Part shown: in pieces, positions 19,451 through 60,544 of the stretch
Layout: each line of letters begins with the position of its first letter
Position numbering within the stretch: position 1 is the first letter of the stretch
NCBI GenBank assembly: GCA_018499985.2
Contig: JAHBAT020000005.1
Location: 15,805 to 79,804 of the forward strand
From: Candidatus Moraniibacteriota bacterium
Lineage (GTDB): Bacteria; Patescibacteriota; Minisyncoccia; Moranbacterales; UBA1568
Length of the DNA stretch: 64,000 nucleotides
Direction of reading: 5' to 3'
Made by a program: the position numbers and the translations under genes
The notes under the pieces: generated by a model
What the model saw: the letters and a program-made list of their open reading frames with translations, nothing else
Databases searched by the model: none
What the model was told of the DNA's origin: nothing

Positions 19451-19479
19451 TTGACTTTTTGTTATTTTAGGTGTATAAT
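19451..19479 (+). promoter_or_regulatory. near-consensus sigma70-type promoter for the 19560 gene
   Basis: TTGACT (19451-19456), 17-nt spacer, TATAAT (19474-19479). About 80 nt upstream of the ATG. GGGAG RBS at 19548-19552. Confidence 0.6.
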
Positions 19480-19559
19480 ATAATTTTGAAAGTGACTAAA
19501 GACACTGGATACAAGTTATTTAACTAGGAGCAAGCCTCCTCCACAATGGGAGTAAAAAT

Positions 19560-20096
19560 ATGCGTCTTGGTCGTTTTGAAAACGAAATCATGGCTGGAAT
19601 TCTCTACGCCATGACCAAGGACTATGGCTATACCTGGCCTCTGTCCAACGAGGACATCGATACCTTCCTCCAGAAAGCACACACTGCCTACAGGGAGGAA
19701 GCAGCAATCAAGCAGCGGCTCTGTCAGAAGTATGCCTGCCGGTACAAGCCGATTTATGCACAGCGCATTCGTCGCTGGCAGTATCTGAGCTGGGCCACCT
19801 TCGGCCTTGCTAATCTGTTTGGCCTCAACAAGAAGCCCCTCTCCTGGGAGGAGGGTATCTACCGGCGTGCCTCTGCCTTCACCAAGAAATTGGTGCCGGA
19901 GAAGTATGCGGTCATGATTGACCACTTCGGCGTCGGCCAGGGCTACGGATCGGGAATTATCGGCATCCGCGACCTCGGAGGTCTCAAGGTGGACACCCAC
20001 GATGACGGGTATTCCCTCTCTCTGCTTCCGCCCCTGGAGCGACTCTTCGAAAGCTGGGGGCAGCGGGAGTGGCGACATCTGGAGACCGCTCACTAG
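19560..20096 (+). CDS. hypothetical protein (GC-rich cassette 1)
   Basis: 178 aa with balanced composition (MRLGRFENEIMAGILYAMTKDYGYTWPLSNEDIDTFLQK...). It has its own promoter and RBS. The overlapping minus-strand 200-aa ORF looks like an antisense artefact. Confidence 0.6.
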   Translation: MRLGRFENEIMAGILYAMTKDYGYTWPLSNEDIDTFLQKAHTAYREEAAIKQRLCQKYACRYKPIYAQRIRRWQYLSWATFGLANLFGLNKKPLSWEEGIYRRASAFTKKLVPEKYAVMIDHFGVGQGYGSGIIGIRDLGGLKVDTHDDGYSLSLLPPLERLFESWGQREWRHLETAH

Positions 20097-20110
20097 ACAA
20101 TAACTTGGGA

Positions 20111-20136
20111 AGGGGCTGTGCAACAACGCAGCCCCT
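20111..20136 (+). other. GC-rich stem-loop AGGGGCTG-N10-CAGCCCCT downstream of cassette-1 gene
   Basis: 8-bp perfect stem. No adjacent T-run on either strand. The same stem sequence recurs at 34488-34519. Confidence 0.6.
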
Positions 20137-20145
20137 ACCCTACCA

Positions 20146-20174
20146 AAAACACGAAGCCGAAAGGCTGTTTTTTA
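20146..20174. terminator. weak bidirectional intrinsic terminator candidate
   Basis: AGCC-GAAA-GGCT hairpin (20155-20166) flanked by an A-run and a T-run. It lies between the convergent 19560 gene and miaB. Confidence 0.3.
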
Positions 20175-20196
20175 TTATCAAAAAATATACTCCTCC

Positions 20197-21369
20197 TTAA
20201 GAATCATGAGCATTGGCTTTTTCAAAACCCTGAAAACACACTGCATCAAGCTCATGATAGCGACGCTGCTTGTCTTCAATTGAGACATCATCTTCCATGC
20301 CTACCGCCGCCTTGGTACCGGGGCGAGGTGAATACCAGGCAATAAAGGTCTGACGAAATCCTACCTCTTTAGCTAGACTGATACTTTCTTGAAATTGCTC
20401 TTCTGTCTCCCCTGGAAAACCTACGATGATATCGGTAGTAAATTCTACCTCAGGGATAGCTGTCCGTATACGTTCTATAAGTGCCAGATACTCTTCTCGG
20501 GTATACCAACGATTCATCCGCTTTAGAACTTCATTACTTCCCGCCTGCACTGGAAGATGAATTACCCTATCAATATTCTTGTTGACTCGTATCACTTCGA
20601 TAAGCTCATCACTAAAGTCCCATGGGTTTGATGCTAAGAAACGCACCTTACGCACTCCAGGCACATGCGCTACTGCTTCAAGAAGTTGTGGAAACATAGT
20701 CGGAATCCGATGACGATTCAGGTGCTTAACCATAATGGGTTCGATAAACTTACCACTTGGCAGCTGATATTTTTCATCTTTTGCGATCAGTGGCATTAAA
20801 ATATCAGCGCCATAAGAATTGACATTCTGACCCAAAAGCATAATCTCATCATGACCATCTGACACTGACTGCTCTACTTCAGAAAGAATTTCATCAAAAG
20901 CCCTTGAGCGCTCCTTGCCACGTGCAAAGGGTACAATACAAAAAGCACAGAAGTTATTGCAACCATTAGAAATTACTATGGAAGCCATCTTCCCCTCCTT
21001 ACGCTTCGGCTCATGTTCAAATCCCACATCTTCCAGCGGGAGAATTTCCGCCTCTGGCAAACGCTTCGTAAGACGCTTCATCATTTTGCCACTTGGCTCG
21101 CGTGCCGCCGACCCAATGAGGCAGCCCGTCACTACTACATGAGGCATAGCTCTTCCTGCTTCTTCTTGGCGCGCTTTTAAGCTACGGATAAAGCCATAGA
21201 CTTTTTCCTCTGCCTTATCTCGAATCACACAGGTATTGAGGACAATCGTATCCGCATCTTCGATACTCGCTGCTTCTGTGTAGCCACGAGATTCATAGTA
21301 GCTTGCCATACGCTCAGAATCAGCAACATTTTGCTGGCAGCCAAAAGTTTTAATAAAATACGTACTCAT
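20197..21369 (-). CDS. miaB: MiaB-family radical SAM methylthiotransferase lacking a TRAM domain
   Basis: FGCQQNVADSE MTTase N-domain and CNNFCAFCIVP radical-SAM CxxxCxxC. The protein ends about 25 aa after YSPRPGT, so no TRAM segment is visible. Confidence 0.85.
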   Translation of the reverse strand: MSTYFIKTFGCQQNVADSERMASYYESRGYTEAASIEDADTIVLNTCVIRDKAEEKVYGFIRSLKARQEEAGRAMPHVVVTGCLIGSAAREPSGKMMKRLTKRLPEAEILPLEDVGFEHEPKRKEGKMASIVISNGCNNFCAFCIVPFARGKERSRAFDEILSEVEQSVSDGHDEIMLLGQNVNSYGADILMPLIAKDEKYQLPSGKFIEPIMVKHLNRHRIPTMFPQLLEAVAHVPGVRKVRFLASNPWDFSDELIEVIRVNKNIDRVIHLPVQAGSNEVLKRMNRWYTREEYLALIERIRTAIPEVEFTTDIIVGFPGETEEQFQESISLAKEVGFRQTFIAWYSPRPGTKAAVGMEDDVSIEDKQRRYHELDAVCFQGFEKANAHDS

Positions 21370-34477: not shown

Positions 34478-34519
34478 GTAAAGAGAAAGGGGCTGCCACG
34501 TTGTTCCGTAACAGCCCCT
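34478..34519 (-). terminator. hairpin/terminator candidate downstream of folA
   Basis: AGGGGCTG (34488-34495) pairs with CAGCCCCT (34512-34519). On the minus strand it is followed by TTTCTCTTT. Confidence 0.45.
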
Positions 34520-34559: not shown

Positions 34560-35117
34560 TTACTTCTGCCGGATTCGTTCCTCAAGGACTACCCTGTATC
34601 TCCCTTCCCAACCAGAAGACTTCCGACGACATACCGGAAACTCCTTTTTGTTGAAACAGGGAAAAAACGTATCTCCCTGAGGTAGCCTCCCGTACCTATC
34701 TACGATACGTGAGATCAGGATACGAGAAGCATACGGCATAAATGCTTGGTAGATCTGCGCCCCACCAATCACAAATACTCTCTCTCCCTCAGTTCTGAAA
34801 CGCTCAATCATCATAAGCGCATCTTCGATGGAAAACGCTGGGATATACGAAGCGTCACCTCGTGGATCTTCTCGGCTCAAGACGATGCTTGTCCTGCCGA
34901 GAAGCGGGTGTCCATTGCGGCGGATAATCGACTCCCAGGTCACTCGCCCCATCACCACCAAGGAATGACAGGTCCGAGCCCGAAAGATTTCCATATCCGT
35001 TTGGATATGCGGCCAAGGCATGTCACCCCCAAGCCCGATAATGCGCTGCCGGCCCATATAAGCAGCGACGAGACTGAGTTCATATGGCAAAAATACCACT
35101 GCATCCTCTCCTACCAT
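34560..35117 (-). CDS. folA: dihydrofolate reductase (GC-richer cassette 2)
   Basis: LSLVAAYMGRQRIIGLGGDMPW, MGRVTWESI, VIGGAQIY and GDTFFP motifs are typical of DHFR. Confidence 0.8.
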   Translation of the reverse strand: MVGEDAVVFLPYELSLVAAYMGRQRIIGLGGDMPWPHIQTDMEIFRARTCHSLVVMGRVTWESIIRRNGHPLLGRTSIVLSREDPRGDASYIPAFSIEDALMMIERFRTEGERVFVIGGAQIYQAFMPYASRILISRIVDRYGRLPQGDTFFPCFNKKEFPVCRRKSSGWEGRYRVVLEERIRQK

Positions 35118-36572: not shown

Positions 36573-36953
36573 ATGCCAAGAGGTGACACATTCAGCCTCA
36601 TGGCTGACGAAATTCTCAAAGACATCAAGGAACGTGGTGTCAATTTCAATAAAGCTTTTTCATGGGCTGCTCATAGGCGCGGTGTATTTCACGAAAAAAA
36701 CCGTGAACAATACAACGACTGGTTCACTCAAGTCCGCAAACGTGTTTCCGAAAAAGAAAATGCTACCCTAAGGAAATCCCTCCGAGGTAAGCGTCCTTGG
36801 CAGCACGGAAAAATAGTCCAGACCACCTGCCGCAGAAAAAAATGGCGCCCCGATGACCCCTGGGGTCACGAAGACGAAGACAACTTCATTTTTCCTGAAA
36901 ACGAAGCGCTCCTTGCTCGCCTACACCACCACCTCCCCCTCACTGACGACTAG
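36573..36953 (+). CDS. hypothetical basic protein (cassette 3, X1)
   Basis: 126 aa from ATG 36573 (MPRGDTFSLMADEILKDIKERG...). The 5' extension in the ORF track starts at the TTG of the -35 box and overlaps the uvrC 5' region. Confidence 0.5.
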   Translation: MPRGDTFSLMADEILKDIKERGVNFNKAFSWAAHRRGVFHEKNREQYNDWFTQVRKRVSEKENATLRKSLRGKRPWQHGKIVQTTCRRKKWRPDDPWGHEDEDNFIFPENEALLARLHHHLPLTDD

Positions 36954-36996
36954 TGATAAACCTGATCATTGGTCGTCTTCTTTTTTATGTAAAAAT

Positions 36997-37060: not shown

Positions 37061-37435
37061 TTAGGCTGCTTCATCGAAGCTAGAGAAGATTGGCGAATCA
37101 GGAGTTGCCCGATACCATCCAATTTCCTCCGAATGAAGAAAATAGGAGAACATATCGCAATTCGGATCAATCAGCCGACTGGTCGGCGTGATATTGGCAC
37201 CATGCCGCTCATAGCAGATAGCTGTGACCGATCGCTGGATAGCAGCCTGAGCCATATCAAGCTCATTGGGCAACATCAGCCCGTGCGTCTCACGATCGAG
37301 ACCATACGGAAACCGCCGATTGAGAAAACTAATAATCTCATCGCGACGCATATCTGCTTCGCCTTCATAGTCCGCAAGGCCTTCCTCGATAGTACGCGCC
37401 CGCAATTCCTGTGCGGGCAACTTGCCAAAACTCAT
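37061..37435 (-). CDS. hypothetical protein (cassette 3, X2)
   Basis: 124 aa acidic protein with protein-like composition. GAAGGGGA RBS and its own promoter. The plus-strand 164-aa overlap looks like an antisense artefact. Confidence 0.55.
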   Translation of the reverse strand: MSFGKLPAQELRARTIEEGLADYEGEADMRRDEIISFLNRRFPYGLDRETHGLMLPNELDMAQAAIQRSVTAICYERHGANITPTSRLIDPNCDMFSYFLHSEEIGWYRATPDSPIFSSFDEAA

Positions 37436-37616: not shown

Positions 37617-38069
37617 TTAGCCGGCGGTTACCAAAGCGTTCGACATGGCCTCGACCACCGGATCTTCATCCGAACAGGTGAGCGGGTAGAAAACACCCCG
37701 CTTCTTCTGGCCTGCGGCCCGGAACTTGATGGTATTGTCGACCTTCTGCAAAGCGCAGAGGTGGTGCAGAAATTCCATGGTCCGAAGCGGGCCCGAAACC
37801 GTGGTGCCGCACGCAAGCGTTTCCTGGATATCCCTTGCCCCCTGATAGCGAGTGCCCTCGGCCTTGGCCCGAAGAGCCTCGGCAGCGGACGGTGACAGAT
37901 TCCAGAACAGCACCCTCTGTTCACCAGGCTTCCTCGCGGCCAATGCCGGAGATTTCGTTTCCCCCTCGGAAACACTCTGCCCCACAGCGGCCTGCGGTGT
38001 ACGGCGCGGATCATTGTGACCACGACCACGACCGGGCTGCTGGATTTTGACTGCTGCGTTTGAACGCAT
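37617..38069 (-). CDS. hypothetical protein with basic disordered N-terminus (cassette 3, X3)
   Basis: 150 aa from ATG 38069 (MRSNAAVKIQQPGRGRGHNDPRR...). The alternative-frame ORF 37628-38077 is Arg-rich junk. Confidence 0.5.
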   Translation of the reverse strand: MRSNAAVKIQQPGRGRGHNDPRRTPQAAVGQSVSEGETKSPALAARKPGEQRVLFWNLSPSAAEALRAKAEGTRYQGARDIQETLACGTTVSGPLRTMEFLHHLCALQKVDNTIKFRAAGQKKRGVFYPLTCSDEDPVVEAMSNALVTAG

Positions 38070-38259: not shown

Positions 38260-38279
38260 GGGTCAAGACCAATTGACCC
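38260..38279. promoter_or_regulatory. inverted repeat GGGTCAA-N6-TTGACCC in the divergent X3/A control region
   Basis: 7-nt arms at 38260-38266 and 38273-38279. The right arm is the -35 box of the A promoter. Confidence 0.35.
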
Positions 38280-38301
38280 TCTTCTGTCTTTTTGATAGTA
38301 T
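38273..38301 (+). promoter_or_regulatory. sigma70-type promoter for paralog A
   Basis: TTGACC (38273-38278), 17-nt spacer, TAGTAT (38296-38301) preceded by TGa. AAGGAG RBS before ATG 38345. Confidence 0.5.
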
Positions 38302-47818: not shown

Positions 47819-48082
47819 ATGTGCGAAAGTACCCCTACACAAACCGTCCAGCAACTCGTCGAAGCTGGAGTCCTGCCTGATCCGAGCAATCGCATGACCC
47901 TGGCCCGCAAAGCTTCCATCCTTGGAGCTATCGCCAGTGGCGCTGCTCGCTCTGCAGACATCATGATCCTCTATGCCATGGGCGAGGAGGAGCTTGGCAG
48001 CTGGGCCGAAAACTTCAAGCAGCATGGCCACAAAGGCCTTCGGGCCACCTTCAGGCATCGCCCTGTAGCACTCGCCGACTGA
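47819..48082 (+). CDS. DUF1153-like helix-turn-helix protein (GC-rich cassette 4)
   Basis: 87 aa. The LP....R.T.ARKA.I..A...G...Y....EE..SW......HG..GLRAT pattern matches my recollection of DUF1153. AGGAG RBS 8 nt upstream. Confidence 0.5.
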   Translation: MCESTPTQTVQQLVEAGVLPDPSNRMTLARKASILGAIASGAARSADIMILYAMGEEELGSWAENFKQHGHKGLRATFRHRPVALAD

Positions 48083-48395: not shown

Positions 48396-48396
48396 A

Positions 48397-48867
48397 CTAC
48401 CCTACTACTTCCAGACGATTGAAATCATGCTCATCAAACTCATCCCAGTACTTGGCTTCGTATTTTTGGATACGCTCGAGAGATTTTTCATCAGTAGCAC
48501 CTTCGAGTTTCCCAGCCTCCTCTACTCCTATCTCACGCACGATATCTCGCCAAGCAAGCTCGCTCGCCATAGCGTCATACACCATGTACTCATTGTAGTG
48601 CTCGAGAAGTGGCGCTACTTCTTGCTCAAAGACAGCATCGCTCAAGGTCAGCTCTCCGCCATAGGTCTCAGCCATATCTTCACAGTCCATGTCTTTGGCA
48701 TACCCCAAGAGGTGTGACTCCAATTCCCAGATACGGTCTGACTGACGGATATAGGCGCCGTTTTTTTCTTCGGGCAGTCCCTCACGAAGCATCTCTAGTA
48801 CCCCGTCAGCTATCCCGATGGTAATCATGAGGTCCCTGTATTGTTTGCTACTCAGCTCTATTTTCAT
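48397..48867 (-). CDS. acidic hypothetical protein
   Basis: 156 aa, strongly Asp/Glu-rich. Packed 1-2 nt from both neighbours. Confidence 0.5.
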   Translation of the reverse strand: MKIELSSKQYRDLMITIGIADGVLEMLREGLPEEKNGAYIRQSDRIWELESHLLGYAKDMDCEDMAETYGGELTLSDAVFEQEVAPLLEHYNEYMVYDAMASELAWRDIVREIGVEEAGKLEGATDEKSLERIQKYEAKYWDEFDEHDFNRLEVVG

Positions 48868-48869
48868 AC

Positions 48870-49217
48870 TTATATTTTCTTTACAAATTCTGACTTGAGA
48901 CCCATAGCTCCAATACCGTCTATCTTACAATCAATATTGTGATCCCCTTCTTCGTTCAGACGGATATTTTTGACTTTGGTCCCTACCTTGACTGAGTTTG
49001 GCGTGCCCTTGATACGGAGGTCTTTGATCACCATCACGGTGTCACCATTGGCAAGCACCACGCCATTGCTATCTTTGACTACAAACCCTGCTTCTTTTTT
49101 GACTTCTTGGCCATCCCATTCATGTGCGCACATCACACAGATAGTCATACCAGCCGCTTCATACGTATGCTTGCTTTCACATTCTGGGCATTGTGGCTCT
49201 TCGATTCTTTCTTCCAT
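48870..49217 (-). CDS. phnA: PhnA/YjdM-type zinc-ribbon protein
   Basis: CPECES...CVMCAHEW zinc ribbon, then [15 protein letters not shown]...KGT...[12 protein letters not shown] as in PhnA. Confidence 0.8.
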
Positions 49218-49282
49218 AGTATTACTGGCTAGAATTACCCCTTTAGTTTACTCTTTCTCAGGTAGAAAAACAAAAAGCGCTC

Positions 49283-50281: not shown

Positions 50282-50399
50282 ACCCTCTGTTTGAAATTAT
50301 TGTTTACTTTACTTACATATTATTATACACTATACTTGTCAGATGGCCAAAAACCTGGCGTCGTATCTGATTTAAACCAATCTAAATAAACACAAATTT

Positions 50400-50666
50400 A
50401 TGGGACTCAGCGACATAGCCAATACATACAAAATAAGTCTTGTGTGGAATAAGGCTACTATTGTTCCAGGAAATGATCCTAACGTCTTTCGAAAAGATCG
50501 TTTTGGAGCATGGATACAGTATAGCGCTTATGGGAACAGGGACCACGAGTACGGCTGGGAAATAGATCATATCATCCCTGTTGCAGCAGGAGGATTAGAT
50601 GATCTTTCAAACCTACAACCTCTTCACTGGCAAGTAAACTGCAAAAAATCAGATAAAATCCTCTAG
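50400..50666 (+). CDS. small HNH endonuclease
   Basis: 88 aa. WEIDHIIPVAAGGLDDLSNLQPLHWQVNCKKSDK is an HNH motif. Confidence 0.8.
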   Translation: MGLSDIANTYKISLVWNKATIVPGNDPNVFRKDRFGAWIQYSAYGNRDHEYGWEIDHIIPVAAGGLDDLSNLQPLHWQVNCKKSDKIL

Positions 50667-53085: not shown

Positions 53086-53089
53086 AAGG

Positions 53090-54832
53090 TTATTTAAATA
53101 ATTTTCTATACACATCAAGAATACTCTCTGGAATTGGCACAATAGAATACCTCACGGTCAAATCAGAGAAATCTTCAGAGTAAGTATCACTGGTAAGAGA
53201 AAATATATACATATTTACAGGAAGTCCTAGTTTCTCTATTTTAGCTTTAAATTCATCAATTTTTTTAAGACTAAACAGAATCCCTACTGACTTTTTCTTA
53301 TCTGAAAAAATTTTGTAATTTACATTATCAGCTACTTTTTCATAGATGCCTTCTCGTACACAGATCATTTCAGTTGATCTTTTAACAAGATTTCTACGAG
53401 TATCATCAGAGACTTTTTCTTTAGAAATAAAATTGGTCTTGAAATATTTTAAATTACCACCAAGGCCCTCAACCTTTTCTCCCTTTTGGTTTTTATACCC
53501 TTTAATAACTTTTTTCATTCGAGGATAACAAATATCTACAGCTATTCCATGTTCAGATTTTTCATCACCATTATTAGTACAGAGAATAAATTTTCGACTA
53601 CCCTTATCAATTTGATTTAATTCTAAAACTGCTTGACCGGTAGTTCCTGATCCAGCAAAAAAATCTAGAATTGTTAATTCCTTACTATTTACTATGGTTA
53701 AGAGTGTCTGAATAAGAGATGTTGGTTTTGGATAATCAAATTTACCTTTACCTAAAATTCTCTCTAGCTCCTTCTTCGCATTATCATTTGAATACTTATT
53801 GTCTACTAACGCTAAGGATAGGAGGGGTGATGATCGATTTATATATTCTATATAATAAATACCCTGTTTATTTTTAGAAATCTGAGCATTCAAATATGTT
53901 TTTGTATATAATCGGTCTCCCCTCTTTTGACTTTTCTGCAGCCAATCGTTCTGAATTCCAAATGCAACCTTTTTTGGTGACCAGCGCCAACGAAAACCAT
54001 CTTTAGGATTTTCAGATTTTCTAATCAAAAAATTTTCTTCTGAAACTTTTCCAGGATAATACGAATTGCCTTCAAACTCAATCAAATAGTCCAATGAATT
54101 TACATAACCCAATGTATCATAATCCAACGTTTGATTAAGCTTATAGGGACCTCTTTCTAAAAAGTGCTCGTCTTTATACTTATACTCCTTATCTTGATGC
54201 GGTGGATTGGTAAGATTCACCAACGACACATCTTTTGCGTACGAAATAACATAGTCATGATTTTTAGCCACTCCTATTGTAGATTTTCCAGCCTTTTTTG
54301 TTACTCGAGGTATCTGAGCAATAAAATTATTCTCTCCAAAAATTTCATCGCAAAGAATTTTTAAATTTGCCTGTTCTATATCATTAATACTGATAAATAT
54401 AATACCATCTCTTTTTAGAAGACTTTTTGACAATCTCAATCTTTTCTCAATAAAAGAAAGCCATTTACTGTGTCGAAAGCCGTCTTCTTTATCAACATAT
54501 CCATCGTTGTATATAAAGTCCTTATTTCCAGTGTTATAAGGTGGATCGATATAAATAACATCAATCTTTTCTTTATGAGTATAATTAAGCACCGAAAGAG
54601 AGTGGTAGTTATCTCCTTCAATCATTAAACTTGTGGATAAAGTGGGATCGGTGAATATAGCCTTTTCTCCAACCTCTTCTAAGACTGGTAACTCCTTCTG
54701 ACACCGCTCAACTACATTTTCTTTTTTTTCTTCCCACACCAAACCGTACTTCTTTCGAGAAGCTAATTTATTTACCTCAGCTAATAGCTGATCTCTATCC
54801 CAGCTTGAATAATCAGTTTTTGCCATATACAC
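53090..54832 (-). CDS. mod: Type III DNA methyltransferase Mod subunit (beta-class N6A/N4C MTase)
   Basis: DVIYIDPPYNTG (motif IV) precedes ILDFFAGSGTTGQA (motif I). This is the beta permutation typical of Mod. Confidence 0.9.
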   Translation of the reverse strand: MYMAKTDYSSWDRDQLLAEVNKLASRKKYGLVWEEKKENVVERCQKELPVLEEVGEKAIFTDPTLSTSLMIEGDNYHSLSVLNYTHKEKIDVIYIDPPYNTGNKDFIYNDGYVDKEDGFRHSKWLSFIEKRLRLSKSLLKRDGIIFISINDIEQANLKILCDEIFGENNFIAQIPRVTKKAGKSTIGVAKNHDYVISYAKDVSLVNLTNPPHQDKEYKYKDEHFLERGPYKLNQTLDYDTLGYVNSLDYLIEFEGNSYYPGKVSEENFLIRKSENPKDGFRWRWSPKKVAFGIQNDWLQKSQKRGDRLYTKTYLNAQISKNKQGIYYIEYINRSSPLLSLALVDNKYSNDNAKKELERILGKGKFDYPKPTSLIQTLLTIVNSKELTILDFFAGSGTTGQAVLELNQIDKGSRKFILCTNNGDEKSEHGIAVDICYPRMKKVIKGYKNQKGEKVEGLGGNLKYFKTNFISKEKVSDDTRRNLVKRSTEMICVREGIYEKVADNVNYKIFSDKKKSVGILFSLKKIDEFKAKIEKLGLPVNMYIFSLTSDTYSEDFSDLTVRYSIVPIPESILDVYRKLFK

Positions 54833-54835
54833 GAA

Positions 54836-55762
54836 CTACTTAAGATACTTTTTATAACCCTGTTTAGCTAAAAACATTGCGTAATCTATATCTTCCTCGG
54901 TGGTAATCACAATATCTGTAAGATGTTGATTGTAATGCTTGAAACTATTTAATCTATACAAAGCTTTTTTTTCTGGATCTTTGAGATCACTTGGTTGCGT
55001 TCTAGAAATAACCAGCACAATTTTAGTTTTGTAAGTATGAATCGCAAAAAGATTTGCGGTACCAATACGATATCCAATGTACGGTTTAGGATTTGGATTT
55101 TCTTCAATTCTTGGATCAAGGGCAAGTATCTTTTGGCTCACTATCTCATAGAGCTCTCGAGATTTTTCCCAATCAGACTTAAAGTGATCATCAACTGAAT
55201 TCCTTTTTATCTCTTTAGAAACTTTTGCAATTTCTTTATTCTTTGTTACTTTATTAATTGACTCGCTATTGCCAGAGGCCTCTACCTGATTATAAAGAAT
55301 CATGCCATTATCAAACTTCTTTACTTTCCAAAGTTCAATCGGAAGATCCTTGAAATTAACTGCTACCACCTGATGGGTAGTAAATGAACTCGCCAAAAAA
55401 AGCACTCTCGACTGAGACCAGTTGATTGATTTTCTATCAAGCACTTTTCCTGTTTTTTCGTTGTATTCCAAAATAAAAGCCGCTTCATTGTTGAGCATAA
55501 GTGAAAGATATGCGAACCCCTGATCAATAATACTAAAGCTTCTATCTCGCTTGTACTCAATAATGACGAAAGAATTTGTCTCTTTATCAAAAGCGAGTGT
55601 ATCAATTCTTAAATTTTGTAATTGAAACTCAGTAGCAATAAATTGCAATCCAAAGACAGCCTCTAAATTTTTCTCTGTCAAAACCTGTAAATCTCTTTCA
55701 AGATCTATCTTTAATTCCTGAATAGGAATAAGTTTATCTTTTTTTTGTTTGAATATAGCCAT
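54836..55762 (-). CDS. PD-(D/E)XK (NucS/DUF91-like) N-domain plus DUF5655-like C-domain protein, first gene of the R-M operon
   Basis: RIDTLAFDKETNSFVIIEYKRD...QGFAYL fits D-x(n)-ExK plus QxxxY. The C-half (PKPYIGYRIG.NLFAIH...KIVLVI) resembles DUF5655. Its stop is 3 nt from the mod start. Confidence 0.55.
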   Translation of the reverse strand: MAIFKQKKDKLIPIQELKIDLERDLQVLTEKNLEAVFGLQFIATEFQLQNLRIDTLAFDKETNSFVIIEYKRDRSFSIIDQGFAYLSLMLNNEAAFILEYNEKTGKVLDRKSINWSQSRVLFLASSFTTHQVVAVNFKDLPIELWKVKKFDNGMILYNQVEASGNSESINKVTKNKEIAKVSKEIKRNSVDDHFKSDWEKSRELYEIVSQKILALDPRIEENPNPKPYIGYRIGTANLFAIHTYKTKIVLVISRTQPSDLKDPEKKALYRLNSFKHYNQHLTDIVITTEEDIDYAMFLAKQGYKKYLK

Positions 55763-55786
55763 TTCTGCGAAGTAAATAGTACTCTT

Positions 55787-55815
55787 ATTCTACCCTTTTC
55801 CCTCTACAAAAGCAA
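55787..55815 (-). promoter_or_regulatory. promoter of the 54836-mod-res operon
   Basis: Minus strand TTGCTT (55815-55810), 17-nt spacer, TAGAAT (55792-55787). Embedded in the 17-nt repeat CACTTTTTGCTTTTGTA. Confidence 0.5.
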
Positions 55816-55835
55816 AAAGTGGTCCACTAGACCAC
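55808..55835 (-). terminator. hairpin plus T-run downstream of the DUF3800 gene, overlapping the next promoter
   Basis: GTGGTC-N5-GACCAC (55819-55835), followed on the minus strand by TTTTTGCTTTTG. Confidence 0.4.
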
Positions 55836-55949
55836 ATTGACAATTTATACTAATTTATGGTACCATTCAGACACAAATGAAGCCGGCTCTGAACTGTCAC
55901 CGTATGGTGCGCGTACCTAGGACATCTAGGATAGGAGTCGGTTTTAATT

Positions 55950-56594
55950 TTATCCAAAATACCAAATATCCTCTATTTTTGGTTGGATAATCTCTAGATA
56001 CTCTTTATGGTCAGTTTTTGCATCCTGAGTAGACCTTAAAATAGCCCCAGCTACCAAATCTGCTAGCTGGATAAGAACATCTGAGTGAGAATGTACAAAT
56101 CTTACTTTTGCTATTTTTGATGATTTTTTGTTTACTTCTCGCTTGAAGTACATGGTCGCAGACTTCTTGTAAGCTCTACCCGAATGTCCATCCAACTTTA
56201 TACTTGCATGATTCAAAGTTGTCGTTTTTTCTAAAACCTCTTTGATAGCGTAGTTATAAAATGAGTCTTGTTTGTTTTTTAACTCATGACTATATATTTT
56301 TCTCTTATCAATACAAATAGCCCGTACGCGAAAAGTAGCTGATTTTACTCTTTCTAAAAGCTCTTTAATCAACTTCTTATTGGTTTTATTAAACTTAAAT
56401 TCTCGCTGATCCGGCCAGCTAAGTTCGCGTCTATATTTTTTAATAATCAAAGCCGCTTCTTCTGCGTCCAGCGAATCATCAAAAATAATACATGCTATCA
56501 CAAAATGACTACTTGAACCTTGCTCAATCTTAAATCCCGGATCACCTGAGTCATCTATAAAAACAAGTTGTCTTTTTTGTTGCGGGATATTCAT
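55950..56594 (-). CDS. DUF3800 family protein
   Basis: 214 aa. The N-terminal LVFIDDSGDPGF motif is typical of DUF3800. Confidence 0.7.
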   Translation of the reverse strand: MNIPQQKRQLVFIDDSGDPGFKIEQGSSSHFVIACIIFDDSLDAEEAALIIKKYRRELSWPDQREFKFNKTNKKLIKELLERVKSATFRVRAICIDKRKIYSHELKNKQDSFYNYAIKEVLEKTTTLNHASIKLDGHSGRAYKKSATMYFKREVNKKSSKIAKVRFVHSHSDVLIQLADLVAGAILRSTQDAKTDHKEYLEIIQPKIEDIWYFG

Positions 56595-56601
56595 GCTGAT
56601 T

Positions 56602-56630
56602 ATTTTACTCTCCGTTTTTTACAAAAGCAA
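56602..56630 (-). promoter_or_regulatory. promoter of the DUF3800 gene
   Basis: Minus strand TTGCTT (56630-56625), 17-nt spacer, TAAAAT (56607-56602). Same 17-nt element as at 55805-55821. Confidence 0.5.
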
Positions 56631-56646
56631 AAAGTGTACTTTTGGA

Positions 56647-56685
56647 TAAAAGAAAAAGAGGCGGCCTTTGGTTAAAGACCACCTC
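56647..56685 (-). terminator. intrinsic terminator of the TPM-domain gene
   Basis: Minus strand GAGGTGGTC-N10-GGCCGCCTC (7 Watson-Crick plus 2 GU pairs), followed by TTTTTCTTTT. Confidence 0.55.
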
Positions 56686-56714
56686 CCTTAGTTTTCACAC
56701 TGCTCGTGAAGGAG

Positions 56715-58745
56715 CTACCAGCGACCGCTGGCACCACCCCCACCAGAGTCTCCACCGCCGAAGCCACCGAAGCCTCCGCTATCGTCATCATCGTCATCGG
56801 AGCGACCACTGCCCGATGAAATGATTGTCGATTCACGACTTTCTTCTGCATCGCGACGAGCTTTGTCGCGACGCCTTTGCTCTGCCTGCTCACGCACACG
56901 CTCAGCTGATTGGATGTCCCGCTCAGCATCTACCTGCGCTTGTCTGGCCAGTCTCGCCGCTTCTTCGAGGAGAATCACCGACCCGATCCAGTCCGGCTTG
57001 GGCTGATGAGCCGATTCTACTGCCTTGACCTTGGTACTCATAGCTTGCCCGAAGGTGTTTCGAGCGGCCATGCCGACGTCCTGGCTTTCCAGTACTCTCG
57101 TGGCACTCCGGATAGCAGTGCCCGCCTGACCCAGTGCTTTTTCGTAGCCACCAGACCTAGCGTGATCGTACTGTTCGGCTACTGCTTGGATTTGGCTGTA
57201 CGCTACCTCTACGCTTGTCACCGACTCCTCAAGCACTCTGAGGCTTCTGATGAGCCCTTGCTGTTTGCTTGCCTGGAGTTTGGCATCGATTGGTATTGCT
57301 CGAAATGCCGTGCGGAGGTCCTTGGCTTGCAGGGCCCTTTGCCAGTGCAGCTCTACTTCATGAGCCTGCTCTTCTGGCAGCCCTTCCCGCAGTCGTGTCG
57401 CCACGCTCTGGAAAGCTGCATAGCGATCCTCGCATGCCTCGATTCGCCCCTTCAAATCATCGTGGAGCTCTTCGATACTGGACAAACGAGTCGATACAGC
57501 ATTTAACTTATCGCCCAGCTCCGTGATGGTAGCTTGCAGGGTCTCGGCCAAGCCGATAATCTGCTCACTCTCATCGTCTTGGCCTTCCACGCGGTTGGCC
57601 AAAAGTGCCTTGAGTGTACGGAGCTTGGCTTCGATGTCTTCCTCAATCCCCTTCTTGTAAATGGATGGGAACTTGAGGCCCTTTTTCGAAAGCGAATCCG
57701 CAAAATACTTGAGTGCGGTCACGGCTTCGGATGTGCGGACCACTTGGTCGGCCGCTTGCGCACGTACTTCTTCGATTTTACTTGGGATTGCTCCCAGAGC
57801 ACTTTCATGCTCCTCGTACTTGGCTTGCGCTTCTTCTGCCTGGCCCACCTTCGCAGCCTTGAGCTTGAGATCCTCTTCTGAGCGATCACGTTGCTTTTGG
57901 GCTGCGTAAATATGTTCATGCAGATGATGTATGGCTTCCGCCAAACCCGCTTCATGCTGGAGGATTTCCCTTTGGATCCACCTGGGCACTGCATCGAGCG
58001 ACGTGCTCACATGCAGTACCGACTCAGATGTCTTCTTCCGGTAGAAATCCGCGAGAGAGACCAGGCGCACCCGCAGGGACTTGCGAAGACGCCGGCGCGC
58101 TTGCCATTGCCTCCATTTTCTCCGGATATAGAAAACACCGAAGATACTTCCTCCGAGAGAGAGGATGCCAGCCAAGAAATTGCCGACATGCTCCCAAAAC
58201 ATCGCTTTGCGCGCTGCAGCATTTTTGGCTTGACGTGCTGCTTCGTTGTTTTTGGCCACGATATACGCTTGGCGCTGCTTTGGAGTAAGTCTCCCGATAC
58301 GCTGGATCAGACCATCGGTCAGATGATCAAGTCCACCGGCGTAATCGCTTTGCCGAAAAGCATCTGGCAAGTTGTCTCGCCCGAGCCGTCCAGCTTCGGC
58401 ATCGGTCACGAAAGGTTCGAGACCGTAGCCGACTTCGATACGATAGCTATGTTCGGCAGGAGCCACCACGACCATGAGGCCGTTGTTGTTTTCCGCCTTG
58501 CCGATACCCCACTCGCGAAACAAGCGGTTGGTCCAGCCTTCGATATCCTCACCATTGAGGGAAGGTGTGGTGACGACGGCAATTTCTACCGTCGTTTGCT
58601 GCTCAAATTGTCCGAGCTTCTGCTCGAGTGCTGCCTCACGATCATCTGGGATGACATTGGCAAAATCATTGACCCAGCCAGTGGACTGGAGTGGCGCTGC
58701 CCCCATAAGGGCTATTGCCATCAAAGGAAGTGCTCTACGACGCAT
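56715..58745 (-). CDS. TPM-domain protein with long coiled-coil region and Gly-rich C-terminus (GC-rich cassette 5)
   Basis: Start at ATG 58745 (MRRRALPLMAIALMGAAPLQ signal). TPM domain: VNDFANVI...VEIAVVTTPSLNG...NNGLMVVVA...RIEVGYGLE. Then a TM, about 400 aa of Ala/Glu/Arg-rich helix and the tail GGFGGFGGGDSGGGGASGRW. Confidence 0.75.
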   Translation of the reverse strand: MRRRALPLMAIALMGAAPLQSTGWVNDFANVIPDDREAALEQKLGQFEQQTTVEIAVVTTPSLNGEDIEGWTNRLFREWGIGKAENNNGLMVVVAPAEHSYRIEVGYGLEPFVTDAEAGRLGRDNLPDAFRQSDYAGGLDHLTDGLIQRIGRLTPKQRQAYIVAKNNEAARQAKNAAARKAMFWEHVGNFLAGILSLGGSIFGVFYIRRKWRQWQARRRLRKSLRVRLVSLADFYRKKTSESVLHVSTSLDAVPRWIQREILQHEAGLAEAIHHLHEHIYAAQKQRDRSEEDLKLKAAKVGQAEEAQAKYEEHESALGAIPSKIEEVRAQAADQVVRTSEAVTALKYFADSLSKKGLKFPSIYKKGIEEDIEAKLRTLKALLANRVEGQDDESEQIIGLAETLQATITELGDKLNAVSTRLSSIEELHDDLKGRIEACEDRYAAFQSVATRLREGLPEEQAHEVELHWQRALQAKDLRTAFRAIPIDAKLQASKQQGLIRSLRVLEESVTSVEVAYSQIQAVAEQYDHARSGGYEKALGQAGTAIRSATRVLESQDVGMAARNTFGQAMSTKVKAVESAHQPKPDWIGSVILLEEAARLARQAQVDAERDIQSAERVREQAEQRRRDKARRDAEESRESTIISSGSGRSDDDDDDSGGFGGFGGGDSGGGGASGRW

Positions 58746-58814
58746 GGTAATTCCCCTTCGTTTCAATTGGAAATGTGCTGTGGAAAACTATGCTCGGTCT
58801 TTGCCGAACGTAGA

Positions 58815-58843
58815 AAAGTACCATTTTTTGGCTTGATTGTCAA
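58815..58843 (-). promoter_or_regulatory. promoter candidate of the TPM-domain gene
   Basis: Minus strand TTGACA (58843-58838), 17-nt spacer, TACTTT (58820-58815) preceded by TGg. GAAGGGGA RBS. Confidence 0.45.
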
Positions 58844-58875
58844 TAATTTCAGGATTTAAGCAAATTCTTTGTCTA

Positions 58876-58904
58876 TTGACTTTTTGAGAAAAAATGATAC
58901 ACTA
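58876..58904 (+). promoter_or_regulatory. promoter of paralog B
   Basis: TTGACT (58876-58881), 16-nt spacer, TACACT (58898-58903) preceded by TGa. AGGAG RBS (58923-58927) before GTG 58935. Confidence 0.5.
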
Positions 58905-58934
58905 TTGCAGCCACTTTCAATCAGGAGATCAGAC

Positions 58935-59423
58935 GTGCGACTTACCGTAGGTATCGGAGCTTTGCTCCTTGGTGCAGCTGCGCTTAGCTACATCCAAAAC
59001 AGCTTTGCCTGGATGCAACCAGGAAGCAACCTTGGTCCTTTTGAAGGCCGTATCGGAGGTATCACTTCCGAGCTTCGCCAAGACAACTTTGCCCTTGAAG
59101 CCAATATCCGGCGCTTTGTCGCCTGTGGCTCCGACTGCACCACTCAGGACGATATCTTCGCTGAACGCGAAAGGATTATCCGCGAGTCTTGGCCCGCTGT
59201 CTTTGACCGTCTCATGGTCGAGACTGACTGGGGCACCTATAGCGATACTGCGTCTGATCATGCCCACTTCAAGGGAGCTCTCGCTCTCTATGGACGTGAC
59301 CAGCTCCGCAATCGCTGTACCCCTGTCATACACTACCTCTGGTGGAATGGAGGCAGGACGCCTGAGGTCAAGAGCAATGGCGAATACCAATGCTCTTTCC
59401 CTCCCACTCGTCGGCAGTCCTAA
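58935..59423 (+). CDS. membrane-anchored four-Cys protein, paralog B (cassette 5)
   Basis: 162 aa from GTG 58935 (RLTVGIGALLLGAAALSYI TM). Aligns with the 38345 gene through WPAVFDRL, DWG, YG, RCTP and CSFPPTRRQ. Confidence 0.6.
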   Translation: MRLTVGIGALLLGAAALSYIQNSFAWMQPGSNLGPFEGRIGGITSELRQDNFALEANIRRFVACGSDCTTQDDIFAERERIIRESWPAVFDRLMVETDWGTYSDTASDHAHFKGALALYGRDQLRNRCTPVIHYLWWNGGRTPEVKSNGEYQCSFPPTRRQS

Positions 59424-59447
59424 CATCTGGTCCGACTTGAGAAACAT

Positions 59448-59486
59448 GAGCCACCTTCTGCAACGCAGCGGGTGGCTCTTTTCTTT
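59448..59486 (+). terminator. intrinsic terminator of paralog B
   Basis: GAGCCACC (59448-59455) pairs with GGTGGCTC (59471-59478), followed by TTTTCTTT. Confidence 0.55.
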
Positions 59487-59490
59487 GTAT

Positions 59491-59532
59491 TAAAAATGAA
59501 AAGGGCGGGTATGTCTGTCGACACCCCGCCCC
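59491..59532 (-). terminator. intrinsic terminator of the 59559 gene
   Basis: GGGCGGG (59503-59509) pairs with CCCGCCC (59525-59531). On the minus strand it is followed by CTTTTCATTTTTA. Confidence 0.55.
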
Positions 59533-59558
59533 AAAGTTTCTCTTGAGAGGAGTCTTCT

Positions 59559-60452
59559 CTACTCCTTCAAGAGCTCTCGTATTCTCAGAAGCGCCCTCGC
59601 CGCATCCGCAGTAGCTGCCTGCTTCGGATTGCCCTGAGACAATACCTCGAGCTCAGCCAGCTTGGTCTGAAATTTCTCCAGAGCCATCACGCGTTCACGG
59701 TTGGCAGTTATCAGGGCCAGTGCTTCCGGGTTGAAATAATATTCGACCTCCTTGATTACCCGAAGCATATTGTGCGGCCGCATAGCCTTGTGCACCGCCG
59801 AGACACGACGCCGTTCTGGGACATCGTAGTAATCCATGGCGATATCCGTCAACACCGACTTGGGAACACAATTACGATCATCGGTATAGCCGTAGAGAAA
59901 CACCAAGCAACAAGCTATCCCCACAGGGTCTCGCTCGAGCACAGTGCCACCCTTTTGAAACAAGGGGTTGCCGCTCTCTGGTGGAAGGTGTTTCACTACT
60001 GGCTCTCGCTGCTTCTTCTCCTGCTTCTCCCTTACCACCTTGGGCAACGCTTCCTCGATATCATCATCCAGTATTGATGACAGAATCTCTCCCGCCAAGG
60101 CACGAGTCAGGCGATTATAGATGCCTGCCGTGTCTTTTTGATGAAACGAGATGGTCCAGATATCTTTCTGCCGACTGGCACCATATTCCGCCTGGAATTC
60201 GATGATGAAGTCTGAGGCTCGCCCCAAGGTGATGCCGTCAGTACCGCTACCAGCGATACGACGGCCAGCCTGCTTGGCTTCAAATGTACCTCGCAGACCT
60301 GCATGGTACATCAAATCCTGCAGCTCAAACTCGAACTGATAGATCAGGTCTTCTGGCCGCCAGTACTGCTGATAGCCTGAAGATGTAATCAGCCGGACAG
60401 AGACCCTGTCACGGCTACTCGGGGATTTCCCCTGAGATACTTGTGTAGCCAT
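59559..60452 (-). CDS. hypothetical protein (cassette 5, X4)
   Basis: 297 aa from ATG 60452 (MATQVSQGK...), preceded by an AAAGGAGAG RBS. Two globular-looking halves are joined by a charged linker. No motif recognised. Confidence 0.55.
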   Translation of the reverse strand: MATQVSQGKSPSSRDRVSVRLITSSGYQQYWRPEDLIYQFEFELQDLMYHAGLRGTFEAKQAGRRIAGSGTDGITLGRASDFIIEFQAEYGASRQKDIWTISFHQKDTAGIYNRLTRALAGEILSSILDDDIEEALPKVVREKQEKKQREPVVKHLPPESGNPLFQKGGTVLERDPVGIACCLVFLYGYTDDRNCVPKSVLTDIAMDYYDVPERRRVSAVHKAMRPHNMLRVIKEVEYYFNPEALALITANRERVMALEKFQTKLAELEVLSQGNPKQAATADAARALLRIRELLKE

Positions 60453-60515
60453 GGTGGCTCTCCTTTGTATTTTGGTAAAAAACAAACGAGATGGTTTCCC
60501 TCCTCGCTTGCCTCC

Positions 60516-60544
60516 ACCCTAAAGCAAAAAATGGCTTTAGTCAA
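60516..60544 (-). promoter_or_regulatory. promoter candidate of X4
   Basis: Minus strand TTGACT (60544-60539), 17-nt spacer, TAGGGT (60521-60516). Confidence 0.4.

Follow-up and report, generated by a model that had tools for sequence, protein, structure and literature searches.

How does a chromosome that otherwise keeps to a GC content of 0.43 come to carry short stretches that are much richer? The window considered here, a stretch of 64,000 nucleotides, is part of a Moraniibacteriota-like Patescibacteria (CPR) chromosome rather than a phage. Its overall GC is 0.43, as is that of its backbone, and its long co-directional backbone operons are interrupted at their boundaries by ten protein-coding genes of GC 0.49-0.60, grouped in five segments (A, 19.5-20.1 kb; B, 34.5-35.1 kb; C, 36.5-38.9 kb; D, 47.8-48.1 kb; E, 56.6-60.5 kb). 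The original prediction saw in these segments expression-ready cassettes, acquired repeatedly and possibly belonging to an undescribed accessory gene pool. Another answer is probably the right one, though by no means assuredly so: the genes would be ancient imports, as single genes or small blocks, kept vertically and held at a separate compositional equilibrium, with no mobile cassettes involved.

The jumps in composition at five places are real. They appear in the GC of 500-nt windows (0.536 at 19501-20000, 0.502 at 34501-35000, 0.568 at 37501-38000, 0.530 at 47501-48000 and 0.47-0.56 over 56501-60500), in GC3, and in tetranucleotide usage, for which the rich set correlates with the backbone at 0.27 and one half of the backbone with the other at 0.97. 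Two single lines had been counted by hand: 37801-37860 holds exactly the 38 G+C in 60 first given, while 17281-17340 holds 24, not 25. Measured against 49 backbone genes (mean GC3 0.395, sd 0.056), the GC3 z-score is 5.6 for A, 4.7 for the 160-aa gene of C, 4.1 for D, 3.0-3.5 for E, 2.4 for the dihydrofolate reductase (DHFR) gene of B and 1.9-2.1 for the remaining three genes of C. The contrast is graded rather than all-or-none, with intermediate GC3 (0.48-0.55) in PIF1, an MFS gene, a GIY-YIG gene and a 156-aa gene. Amino-acid usage is shifted as well: Arg goes up from 4.8% in the backbone to 9.4% in the rich genes, and Lys down from 7.0 to 4.4%.

The genes and their presumptive signals are as follows; where a second length is given, it is that of the listed ORF, and the gene is called by it below.

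19451..19479, plus strand: promoter-like site TTGACT-17-TATAAT, 80 nt 5' of the segment A gene; identical motif in L018
19560..20096, plus strand: segment A, 178-aa orphan; GC 0.57, GC3 0.71; no family matches
20105..20190, plus strand: two hairpins, terminator region common to the 178-aa gene and convergent MiaB (fold of 100 nt downstream, -33 kcal/mol)
34489..34518, minus strand: GC-rich hairpin 3' of DHFR, directly preceding the conserved UvrA promoter
34560..35117, minus strand: segment B, DHFR; GC 0.51; Pfam DHFR_1, 109 bits
36573..36953, plus strand: segment C gene 1, 126-aa orphan (listed as 147 aa); GC 0.49
36945..36977, plus strand: bidirectional terminator hairpin separating the 147-aa and 124-aa genes
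37061..37435, minus strand: segment C gene 2, 124-aa orphan; GC 0.51
37513-37485, minus strand: promoter of the 124-aa gene, TTGACG-17-TAGTAT with TG; kept in all five relatives
37617..38069, minus strand: segment C gene 3, 150-aa orphan (listed as 160 aa); the GC peak, GC 0.60, GC3 0.66
38151-38123 and 37586-37556, minus strand: promoter and strong terminator of segment C gene 3 (sequence and fold)
38273..38301, plus strand: promoter-like site of the 196-aa gene, TTGACC-17-TAGTAT with TG extension; kept in L005, L006, L007 and L014
38345..38863, plus strand: segment C gene 4, 172-aa membrane-anchored Cys-containing protein (listed as 196 aa); terminator 38843-38871
47819..48082, plus strand: segment D, 87-aa DUF1153 helix-turn-helix protein; GC 0.59; Pfam DUF1153, 43 bits
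48114..48150, plus strand: bidirectional terminator hairpin between the DUF1153 and GIY-YIG genes (direct sequence reading and fold)
56654..56689, minus strand: terminator hairpin after the TPM gene, 16 pairs; left edge of block E
56715..58745, minus strand: segment E gene 1, 676-aa TPM-domain membrane protein; GC 0.56; Pfam TPM_phosphatase, 132 bits
58843-58815, minus strand: TPM gene promoter, TTGACA-17-TACTTT with TG; conserved
58876..58903, plus strand: promoter-like site of the 184-aa gene, TTGACT-16-TACACT with TG; identical in L002 and L040
58935..59423, plus strand: segment E gene 2, 162-aa membrane-anchored protein (listed as 184 aa); paralogue of the 38345-38863 gene
59559..60452, minus strand: segment E gene 3, 297-aa orphan; GC 0.53; 78% identical in relatives
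60544-60516, minus strand: promoter of the 297-aa gene, TTGACT-17-TAGGGT; conserved

Each gene was said to be bracketed by a promoter and a hairpin. The hairpins hold throughout, with a strong one in the RNA fold 3' of all ten genes; the promoter motif TTGACN-N16/17-TAnnnT is found 31-80 nt 5' of the start in seven only (TG-extended in four), compared with 2 of 55 other genes (Fisher p = 6e-6). The strict motif was not found 5' of the DHFR, 147-aa and DUF1153 genes, the last of which starts 60 nt past the MFS stop codon. Promoters are retained even in relatives whose proteins are now just 30-40% identical, and the hairpins have T-runs and unrelated sequences, like ordinary intrinsic terminators. 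As read from these motifs, most of the rich genes appear to be monocistronic units, each with its own conserved sigma-70-type promoter and intrinsic terminator. The long ORFs on both strands are likewise there, but trivially so: every one of them uses the antisense frame in phase with the gene. Only sense TTA, CTA and TCA close that frame, and these account for 0.7% of rich-gene codons versus 2.8% in the backbone. Antisense frames are conserved at 50-65% versus 68-78% for sense frames (54 versus 76% in the 184-aa gene). Purifying selection acts on the rich genes (dN/dS 0.08-0.22), and they are genuine protein-coding genes.

What they encode is mostly obscure. Pfam confirms the three identities first proposed, DHFR, DUF1153 and TPM; family searches, Pfam included, gave no matches for the remaining seven proteins. 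Seven of the ten are clade-restricted orphans, for which structure models failed (pLDDT 37-41); among 5.8 billion proteins, the 178-aa protein is represented by just 3 clusters. Two belong to one small membrane-anchored family, the 196-aa protein of C and the 184-aa protein of E being paralogues (BLASTP 31% identity, E = 4e-15). For the 184-aa protein, a profile search reaches 75 clusters (50% identity) among 1.84 billion proteins, and besides its own cluster there is one other at 90% identity. In the TPM protein a long coiled coil forms the tail, and the C-terminus is Gly-rich; the DUF1153 protein has a weak SciP-like match, below cut-off.

The age of the arrangement can be read from relatives, of which the sample covers +/-10 kb around a few anchors. 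UvrC-anchored GTDB loci form a graded series, 91-63% identical and labelled Moraniibacteriota or Patescibacteria. Segments A, C, D and E keep their junction, orientation and raised GC in relatives, to about 74% UvrC identity, A and D each in one or two related species. The gene of A stands at the ExoIII/MiaB junction also in L018-L020 (76% identity, GC 0.57; neighbours 88-99% identical), and that of D is likewise 3' of the MFS gene in L039 (69% identity, GC 0.56; MFS 93% identical). Segment C is flanked by UvrC and PIF1, its order and orientation kept, in L005, L006, L007, L014 and L008: gene 1 is 85% identical in L005, 74% in L006, 50% in L014 and 45% in L008, all syntenic (dN/dS 0.08); gene 2 is 80-34% identical in five syntenic relatives (dN/dS 0.16), as gene 4 is at 84-30%; gene 3 is 76-41% identical, with GC 0.59-0.51, and syntenic in L005, L006, L007 and L014 (dN/dS 0.22). 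Segment E has the same Rhodanese/TspO/Cupin/Glyoxalase/DUF1294 neighbours in L002-L004 and L040, at GC 0.53-0.57 versus 0.42-0.47 in the flanks, and its junction, orientation and raised GC are also kept in L041-L044; this synteny covers one flank only, because each relative's contig stops within the TPM gene. Block E proteins are 72-78% identical, compared with 74-90% for flanking genes; the TPM protein is 68-81% identical in relatives.

Rich-gene proteins diverge about 2-4 times faster than their neighbours, and their identity ranks track those of backbone genes. Because place and composition are shared with relatives, the rich genes are better seen as old and lineage-specific than as a new type of mobile cassette; they appear to have been in place since the common ancestor of a genus-level clade and to have been inherited vertically since. 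A, C, D and E are essentially retained by descent with the same composition, and DHFR is the sole one of the ten genes to vary in presence. It lies between UvrC and UvrA in L005, L006 and L008 and is absent from L007, L014, L009 and L010, as a clean indel of about 610 nt running from the UvrC stop codon to a conserved hairpin. A conserved TTGACA follows the UvrC stop codon immediately, with a poor -10 element; genomes without DHFR carry an equivalent hairpin and promoter. One ancestral gain and one later loss best explain the distribution.

Where, then, did the GC come from? On the favored account, old piecemeal transfer from higher-GC donors (roughly 50-60%, probably other Patescibacteria) would have placed genes in intergenic gaps beside terminators, where strong native-type promoters would have made them expressible; they would then have passed vertically from the clade ancestor, evolving faster in protein than their neighbours. 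In third-position spectrum, as in NNY and NNR ratios, the rich genes match Patescibacteria loci of 50-54% GC (L013, L015, L017). A distant member of the 184/196-aa family, 34-38% identical to both paralogues, sits in a uniformly 60% GC contig, and the family is compositionally native in that one genome. A high-GC source had been proposed from the start: a higher-GC donor is plausible on codon usage, while a search for viral homologues of the proteins found none to favor phages. Transfer of individual genes is common in Patescibacteria; 83% of transfers stay within the phylum, and most are not recent (PMC12455944). The rich genes resemble these: they stand singly or in small blocks in a streamlined CPR genome, show no hallmarks of mobile elements and are old, with the codon usage of higher-GC members of the phylum. 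They differ in having no nameable donor-recipient pair, in that seven of the ten are orphans, and in their apparently stationary GC excess and unusually strong, conserved promoters of their own.

That excess is the difficulty. If the imports are older than the L008 split, simple amelioration theory would have most of it gone by now; therefore an extra maintaining force is needed, perhaps GC-biased gene conversion or selection, which would keep the genes at their own equilibrium. Polarised synonymous third-position changes number 50 GC-to-AT and 49 AT-to-GC, where backbone bias expects about 2:1 (p = 3e-4), and the unsaturated L002/L004 comparison gives 10 and 13 (p = 7e-3); these are low numbers (99 and 23 changes in all), and polarisation is by parsimony, with an outgroup so distant that synonymous sites are near saturation (dS about 1-2). 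Because the two directions balance, the raised GC would not be decaying. Horizontal origin rests on composition and one family, because seven proteins lack homologues outside the clade; the genes could equally be native rather than imported.

A second perspective, possible if rather unlikely, supposes just this: fast-evolving native genes of the lineage, held at high GC by local gene conversion at often-recombining loci or by expression-linked selection. The balanced flux and the high GC3 retained in all relatives suit it, as do the low dS of the rich genes (0.67-1.12, compared with 1.3-2.4 in the backbone), the strength and conservation of the promoters and the breakage of seven of seven relatives' assemblies within the TPM gene, a hint of variability between strains. 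Within bacterial genomes, GC is already known to be higher where recombination is (Lassalle et al. 2015, PMC4450053), with GC3 heterogeneity, some genes high and no net decay, as here. However, the shift in the rich genes (GC3 +0.15 to +0.3) is larger than is typical of biased conversion and extends to amino-acid usage; the Arg and Lys changes look like long residence under GC-rich conditions, unlike codon selection. Codon usage equal to that of higher-GC Patescibacteria, and a family at home at 60% GC, also favor import.

Recent, repeated arrival by an undescribed cassette mechanism, from a mobile pool belonging to a host, partner or phage of high GC, is very improbable, having been largely refuted by synteny. 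Atypical composition, the self-contained promoter-gene-terminator anatomy and the clean DHFR indel did invite it, and the UvrC/PIF1 junction of L005 has taken up a 6-kb NAD-salvage cluster. DHFR is, moreover, a classic integron cassette cargo, and small single-gene units with a hairpin-forming 3' sequence recall integron cassettes. But four of the five segments have a fixed junction and GC in every relative examined and co-diverge with the backbone. Searches found no integrase or transposase, as first reported, and around the segments no shared flanking repeat, att-like site or common hairpin sequence. Unlike integron cassettes, the genes are scattered in both orientations, with their own promoters and ordinary terminators, and have neither IntI, array nor attC-like site. 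They resemble genomic or defence islands in lying, with atypical composition, between conserved backbone genes, at one junction (UvrC/PIF1) of variable content. Recent genomic islands are usually AT-rich, whereas these segments are GC-rich, conserved in relatives and free of tRNA, integrase and direct repeats; the strain-specific insertions actually seen are low-GC.

Artefact, whether chimeric assembly, contaminating DNA or structured non-coding RNA, is hardly credible, even though composition changes abruptly along a metagenomic contig and both strands carry ORFs: an independent Logan assembly matches block E with its junctions at 100% identity across 8.6 kb (the 297-aa protein has an exact copy in one such, L001), all five segments occupy the same junctions in NCBI, ENA, JGI and Logan MAGs or contigs, the dN/dS values are low, and Rfam gives no matches in C and E even at E = 0.1.

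The strain-variable DNA of the window lies in low-GC islands at 15.7-18.5 kb and 50.7-56.6 kb, which include a defence island.

The window has an overall GC content of 0.43, carries almost all of its genes on the minus strand, and is chromosomal rather than viral in content: a cell-division and cell-wall cluster (MraZ, RsmH, PBP) is accompanied by MgsA, exonuclease III, MiaB, RlmN, a type IV pilus cluster, UvrA, UvrC and a PIF1-like helicase. UvrC has relatives among GTDB species genomes at graded identities of 91, 88, 80, 77, 74, 66 and 63%, in genomes labelled Candidatus Moraniibacteriota or Patescibacteria, several of them 'uncultured Bdellovibrionales'; the graded series under these labels identifies the backbone as a Moraniibacteriota-like CPR chromosome. 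The Bdellovibrionales label looks wrong for four related MAGs that carry it in their titles (L005, L006, L007 and L014): their UvrC is 77-91% identical to that of Moraniibacteriota/Patescibacteria MAGs, and synteny is full. Megablast of 24 kb of the window against 50,697 phage records gave no match, which with the chromosomal genes rules out that the window is itself a phage. No tRNA or tmRNA genes were found in it.

The original prediction described abrupt jumps in composition along this AT-leaning backbone. The jumps are real and lie where it placed them, its hand counts of G+C are correct to within one base, and they resolve into ten genes in five segments, A to E:

19560-20096, plus strand: segment A, 178-aa protein
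34560-35117, minus strand: segment B, DHFR
36573-36953, plus strand: segment C, gene 1 (the 147-aa gene)
37061-37435, minus strand: segment C, gene 2
37617-38069, minus strand: segment C, gene 3
38345-38863, plus strand: segment C, gene 4, 172-aa protein (listed as 196 aa)
47819-48082, plus strand: segment D, DUF1153 protein
56715-58745, minus strand: segment E, gene 1, TPM-domain protein
58935-59423, plus strand: segment E, gene 2, 162-aa protein (listed as 184 aa)
59559-60452, minus strand: segment E, gene 3, 297-aa protein

Third-codon-position GC (GC3) of the ten lies 1.9-5.6 standard scores above that of the 49 backbone genes (0.395 +/- 0.056). Tetranucleotide usage of the rich set correlates with that of the backbone at 0.27, compared with 0.97 between halves of the backbone and 0.60 between segments C and E. 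The rich genes therefore have the atypical base composition by which genomic islands are recognised. The long ORFs reported on both strands are present, but as shadows: all occupy the in-phase antisense frame, which is closed only by the sense codons TTA, CTA and TCA, used a quarter as often in the rich genes as in the backbone, and conservation is consistently lower for the antisense than for the sense translations; true overlapping genes on the opposite strand are rejected on both counts. The further claim, that each gene is bracketed by a promoter and a hairpin, holds fully for the hairpin, a strong one lying downstream of 10/10 rich genes; T-runs after these hairpins mark them as intrinsic terminators. 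For the promoter it holds in part: TTGACN-N16/17-TAnnnT stands 31-80 nt upstream of the start in 7/10 rich genes versus 2/55 others (Fisher p = 6e-6), but the strict motif is missing from DHFR, the 147-aa gene and DUF1153. Promoters upstream of orthologues are conserved even where protein identity is 30-40%.

Few of the products are recognisable, as predicted: Pfam names only DHFR (PF00186, 109.2 bits with the cut-off at 25, over positions 2-142 of a 159-position profile), the TPM domain (PF04536, 132.3 bits against 22.1) and DUF1153 (PF06627, 43.2 bits against 23.5). In NCBIfam, DHFR falls under every equivalog cut-off, those of all trimethoprim-resistance Dfr families included, the DUF1153 protein scores 44 bits where SciP demands 100, and the TPM protein 36 where Psb32 demands 160. 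The seven orphans had no matches in NCBIfam, PHROGs or PADLOC, PDB sequence searches were also empty, and no homologues were found beyond the clade; in PHROGs, DHFR alone of the rich proteins had a match. At 90% identity the 178-aa family forms just three clusters in a set of 5.8 billion proteins. Two of the orphans, the 172-aa protein of segment C and the 162-aa one of segment E, are paralogues of each other (31% identity, E = 4e-15). Each has a membrane anchor at its N-terminus as well as conserved cysteines; when 1.84 billion representatives were searched with a profile, this 184/196-aa family came to only 75 clusters, all of 150-220 aa. AlphaFold2 gave pLDDT 41 for the 297-aa protein (from a single sequence) and 37 for the 178-aa protein (from three). 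Exact-protein look-ups matched only the ATG-start 297-aa protein, and neither MiaB nor the over-long TTG-start versions.

The rich genes are nonetheless real protein genes, and purifying selection acts on them: comparing the window with L005 (assembly GCA_964385005.1, contig CAYLMF010000004.1) gives a dN/dS of 0.08-0.22, with dN some 2-4 times that of the backbone. Structured RNA in place of genes is rejected, Rfam being empty there at the gathering score (whole window) and at E = 0.1 (segments C and E). In the same comparison, for genes at 25.8-40.4 kb, rich-gene dS is 0.67-1.12 and that of the adjacent backbone 1.3-2.4, despite the higher dN of the former; synonymous-site constraint, later exchange of alleles and an artefact of estimation near saturation are possible reasons.

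Chimeric assembly is excluded: block E, with both edges, lies within 8.6 kb that a Logan assembly made independently reproduces at 100% identity, and every segment junction was found again in assemblies made by other groups. For phages, proposed as a possible source of the genes, no support was found: IMG/VR viral contigs contained no relatives of the four proteins scanned, and the megablast search gave no phage match.

A mobile pool of cassettes was the larger proposal, and only its premise of a foreign, higher-GC origin stays plausible; a recent, mobile cassette-type pool is unsupported, as four of the five segments lie at fixed junctions in relatives. The absence of an integrase or transposase that the prediction remarked on was borne out by Pfam in the rich genes and in all unassigned ORFs of the window. 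The arrangement also departs from an integron at each point. There, an IntI-type tyrosine recombinase lies beside the cassettes; here, those same ORFs yield no recombinase. Integrons have attC-type palindromes of shared architecture; here the 3' hairpins are unrelated in sequence and form no repeat family. Integron cassettes are mostly promoterless, stand in tandem in one orientation and use a common Pc; these genes are spread over 41 kb on both strands, and seven of the ten have a TTGAC-type promoter of their own. Nor is it a classical genomic island, with a tRNA site, an integrase and direct repeats: the window showed none of the three, and no shared repeats flanking the segments were found in it.

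Comparison with relatives, which the original prediction had called for, shows that, unlike the variable content of an island, segments A, C, D and E occupy the same junctions in every relative seen. Segment A occupies the same junction between ExoIII and MiaB, on the same strand, in a 260-kb contig (L018), at 76% identity and GC 0.57, between neighbours of 88-99% identity and GC 0.40-0.45. The four genes of segment C keep order and orientation between UvrC and PIF1 in L005, L006, L007, L014 and L008; their identities drop from 76-85% to 30-45%, ranking the relatives as the backbone does (UvrA, 96 to 86%), and their GC exceeds that of the local backbone in all five. In the relative L039 the DUF1153 gene of segment D follows the MFS gene as in the window (69% identity, GC 0.56; the MFS protein, 93%). 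The trio of segment E (genes for the TPM protein and for proteins of 161-171 and 287-298 aa) stays together in L002-L004 and L040-L044 as one block adjoining Rhodanese/TspO/Cupin/Glyoxalase/DUF1294 genes; the same set lies past the end of the window, as seen in L001. In these relatives the block has GC 0.53-0.57 and its flanks 0.42-0.47, with identities of 72-78% for its proteins versus 74-90% for flanking ones. Contigs of seven relatives (L002, L003, L004, L040-L043) end inside the TPM gene, 173-600 codons from the N-terminus, which suggests that the C-terminal coiled-coil region is hypervariable at the level of strains; tandem repeats as a cause of the breaks found no backing in the window copy, which has none of note.

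DHFR is the only rich gene that varies in presence. It lies between UvrC and UvrA in L005, L006 and L008 (83, 67 and 64% identity) and is missing there in L007, L014, L009 and L010. Aligned junctions show a clean indel of some 610 nt without flanking repeats. On one side of it is the stop codon of UvrC; on the other, a terminator hairpin and then the UvrA promoter, both conserved. The distribution is most simply explained by a single gain in an ancestor and a single loss.

How the genes came to be GC-rich is a separate question, and we favour old import from higher-GC donors, plausibly other Patescibacteria. The codon shift from backbone to rich genes is mainly T to C at NNY (0.22 to 0.48), NNR changing little (0.49 to 0.55); amino acids shift too, Arg from 4.8 to 9.4% and Lys from 7.0 to 4.4%. 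The NNY shift without a Gln/Glu one might suggest translational selection, which is rejected: the same third-position spectrum is the genome-wide norm in Patescibacteria loci of 50-54% GC (L013, L015, L017), so that it reflects a general GC regime, and the amino acids shift as well. Further, a distant member of the 184/196-aa family (38% and 34% identity to the two window paralogues) lies on a contig of uniformly 60% GC, among neighbours with GC3 0.69-0.78, and is compositionally native there. The codon spectrum, the amino-acid shift and this native setting together favour the import reading, which agrees with a survey in which individually transferred genes are common in Patescibacteria, 83% of transfers fall inside the phylum and most are not recent (PMC12455944). 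A distant family member also occurs with two small genes in the loci L046 / L047 (3750-5567; GC 0.58-0.61, GC3 0.76-0.80), adjoining an 895-aa HATPase_c_3 protein of GC 0.50: either a mosaic of the same kind or a high-GC genome with a low-GC insert. A 207-aa neighbour there is 51% identical to the product of a gene in the patescibacterial locus L033.

One result was unexpected, and it keeps in play a serious if unlikely rival, that the rich genes are native and their GC is maintained locally: the GC excess is apparently not decaying. With L006 as outgroup, third-position synonymous changes along the branches of the window and L005 number 50 GC-to-AT versus 49 AT-to-GC, where relaxation under the mutation bias of the backbone would give about 2:1 (binomial p = 3e-4); the unsaturated pair L002 and L004, with the window as outgroup, gives 10 versus 13 (p = 7e-3), all polarised by parsimony, which is weak at these distances. 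Raised GC3 is kept by orthologues in all relatives, and the DNA beside UvrC has elevated GC even in L009, in which homology can no longer be detected. Balanced flux with raised GC3 in orthologues suggests a maintaining force, for which GC-biased gene conversion, described in bacteria (PMC4450053), and selection are the candidates. A bolder version, distinctly improbable in our estimation, has an independently transcribed, fast-evolving class of orphans actively held at a GC-rich equilibrium, with AT/GC synonymous flux in balance and dS lowered, in the AT-leaning chromosome of a streamlined Patescibacteria genus. The equilibrium would be held by GC-biased gene conversion at recombination-prone loci, or by nucleotide-level selection tied to strong promoters, and the mosaic would be a maintained state and not the fading scar of a transfer.

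The tempting but mistaken view that CPR bacteria have a new cassette system here is removed. The window adds one more case to a familiar kind, in which a CPR genome contains compositionally atypical genes that are lineage-specific or were acquired long ago. What is modestly interesting is that the GC is apparently stationary and the strong promoters are conserved; the excess looks stationary across a clade with saturated synonymous sites. If that stands, the window would offer a compact natural case of within-genome GC heterogeneity, gene conversion against selection, in ultra-small symbionts, and some ten conserved, strongly promoted orphans, several of them membrane-anchored, would become candidates for host-interaction functions. 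There is a consequence for composition-based calling of islands in MAGs: here the GC-rich patches are old, retained, fast-evolving lineage-specific genes, and the recent, strain-specific DNA is AT-rich.

The strain-specific DNA of the window is indeed low in GC. A 2.9-kb stretch between MgsA and ExoIII (15668-18548; FAD_binding_4 protein of 827 aa and a 131-aa protein, GC 0.35-0.38) is missing in L018, where the gap is 78 nt; it is a real strain-specific insertion, and AT-rich. A defence island of GC 0.30-0.37 (50773-56594) directly abuts block E, which makes the apparent GC jump sharper there:

50773-53142: type III restriction subunit
53090-54832: methylase
within the island: 308-aa protein matching PADLOC candidate system PDC-S18 (E = 1.7e-97)
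55950-56594, minus strand: DUF3800 protein
55880-55948, plus strand: DUF3800-IX RNA motif (Rfam, 56.6 bits; gathering score 36.8)

The strand opposite to the DUF3800 gene carries the RNA motif, immediately past the 3' end of that gene, and just upstream of the motif is a promoter-like TTGACA-18-TACCAT with a TG (55837-55866, plus strand). Three copies of a 37-nt motif, 70-76% identical (49243-49279, 55785-55821 and 56600-56636), stand just upstream of the minus-strand genes for a 115-aa PhnA-like protein, PDC-S18 and DUF3800. These were considered as att sites of the low-GC island and rejected; to judge from their sequence they look like a shared promoter (TTGCTT-N17-TAGAAT, minus strand). In L039 an LCAT-like gene, and not the defence island, directly follows the DUF1153 gene, so that 48.1-60.9 kb of the window is arranged differently there.

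Between segment D and the defence island lies a small, accessory-looking cluster (48156-50666): a GIY-YIG nuclease (GC3 0.55), a 156-aa orphan (GC3 0.54), the PhnA/YjdM-like 115-aa protein, a 332-aa RhuM + Fic/DOC protein and, on the plus strand, an 88-aa HNH endonuclease. On the other side of segment D, the MFS transporter gene (46553-47758, plus strand; GC 0.49) forms with the DUF1153 gene a unit kept in L039. A metagenome scan found its homologues at 18 loci (53-67% identity, contigs of GC 0.33-0.57), in unrelated contexts with zero synteny; the gene is probably mobile over evolutionary time, and probably another old import. Finally, L005 carries about 6 kb of extra DNA at the junction of PIF1 and the 196-aa gene (1819-7206, GC up to 0.56) that is missing from the window: a NAD-salvage cluster of PnuC NMN transporter, NadR-like, NrtR (NUDIX + winged helix), PRPP-synthetase-like (290-aa), 129-aa and NAMPT proteins, which makes the stretch between UvrC and PIF1 a genuine hotspot. 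The pairing of the PRPP-synthetase-like protein with NAMPT is one that we take to resemble phage NAD+ reconstitution pathways.
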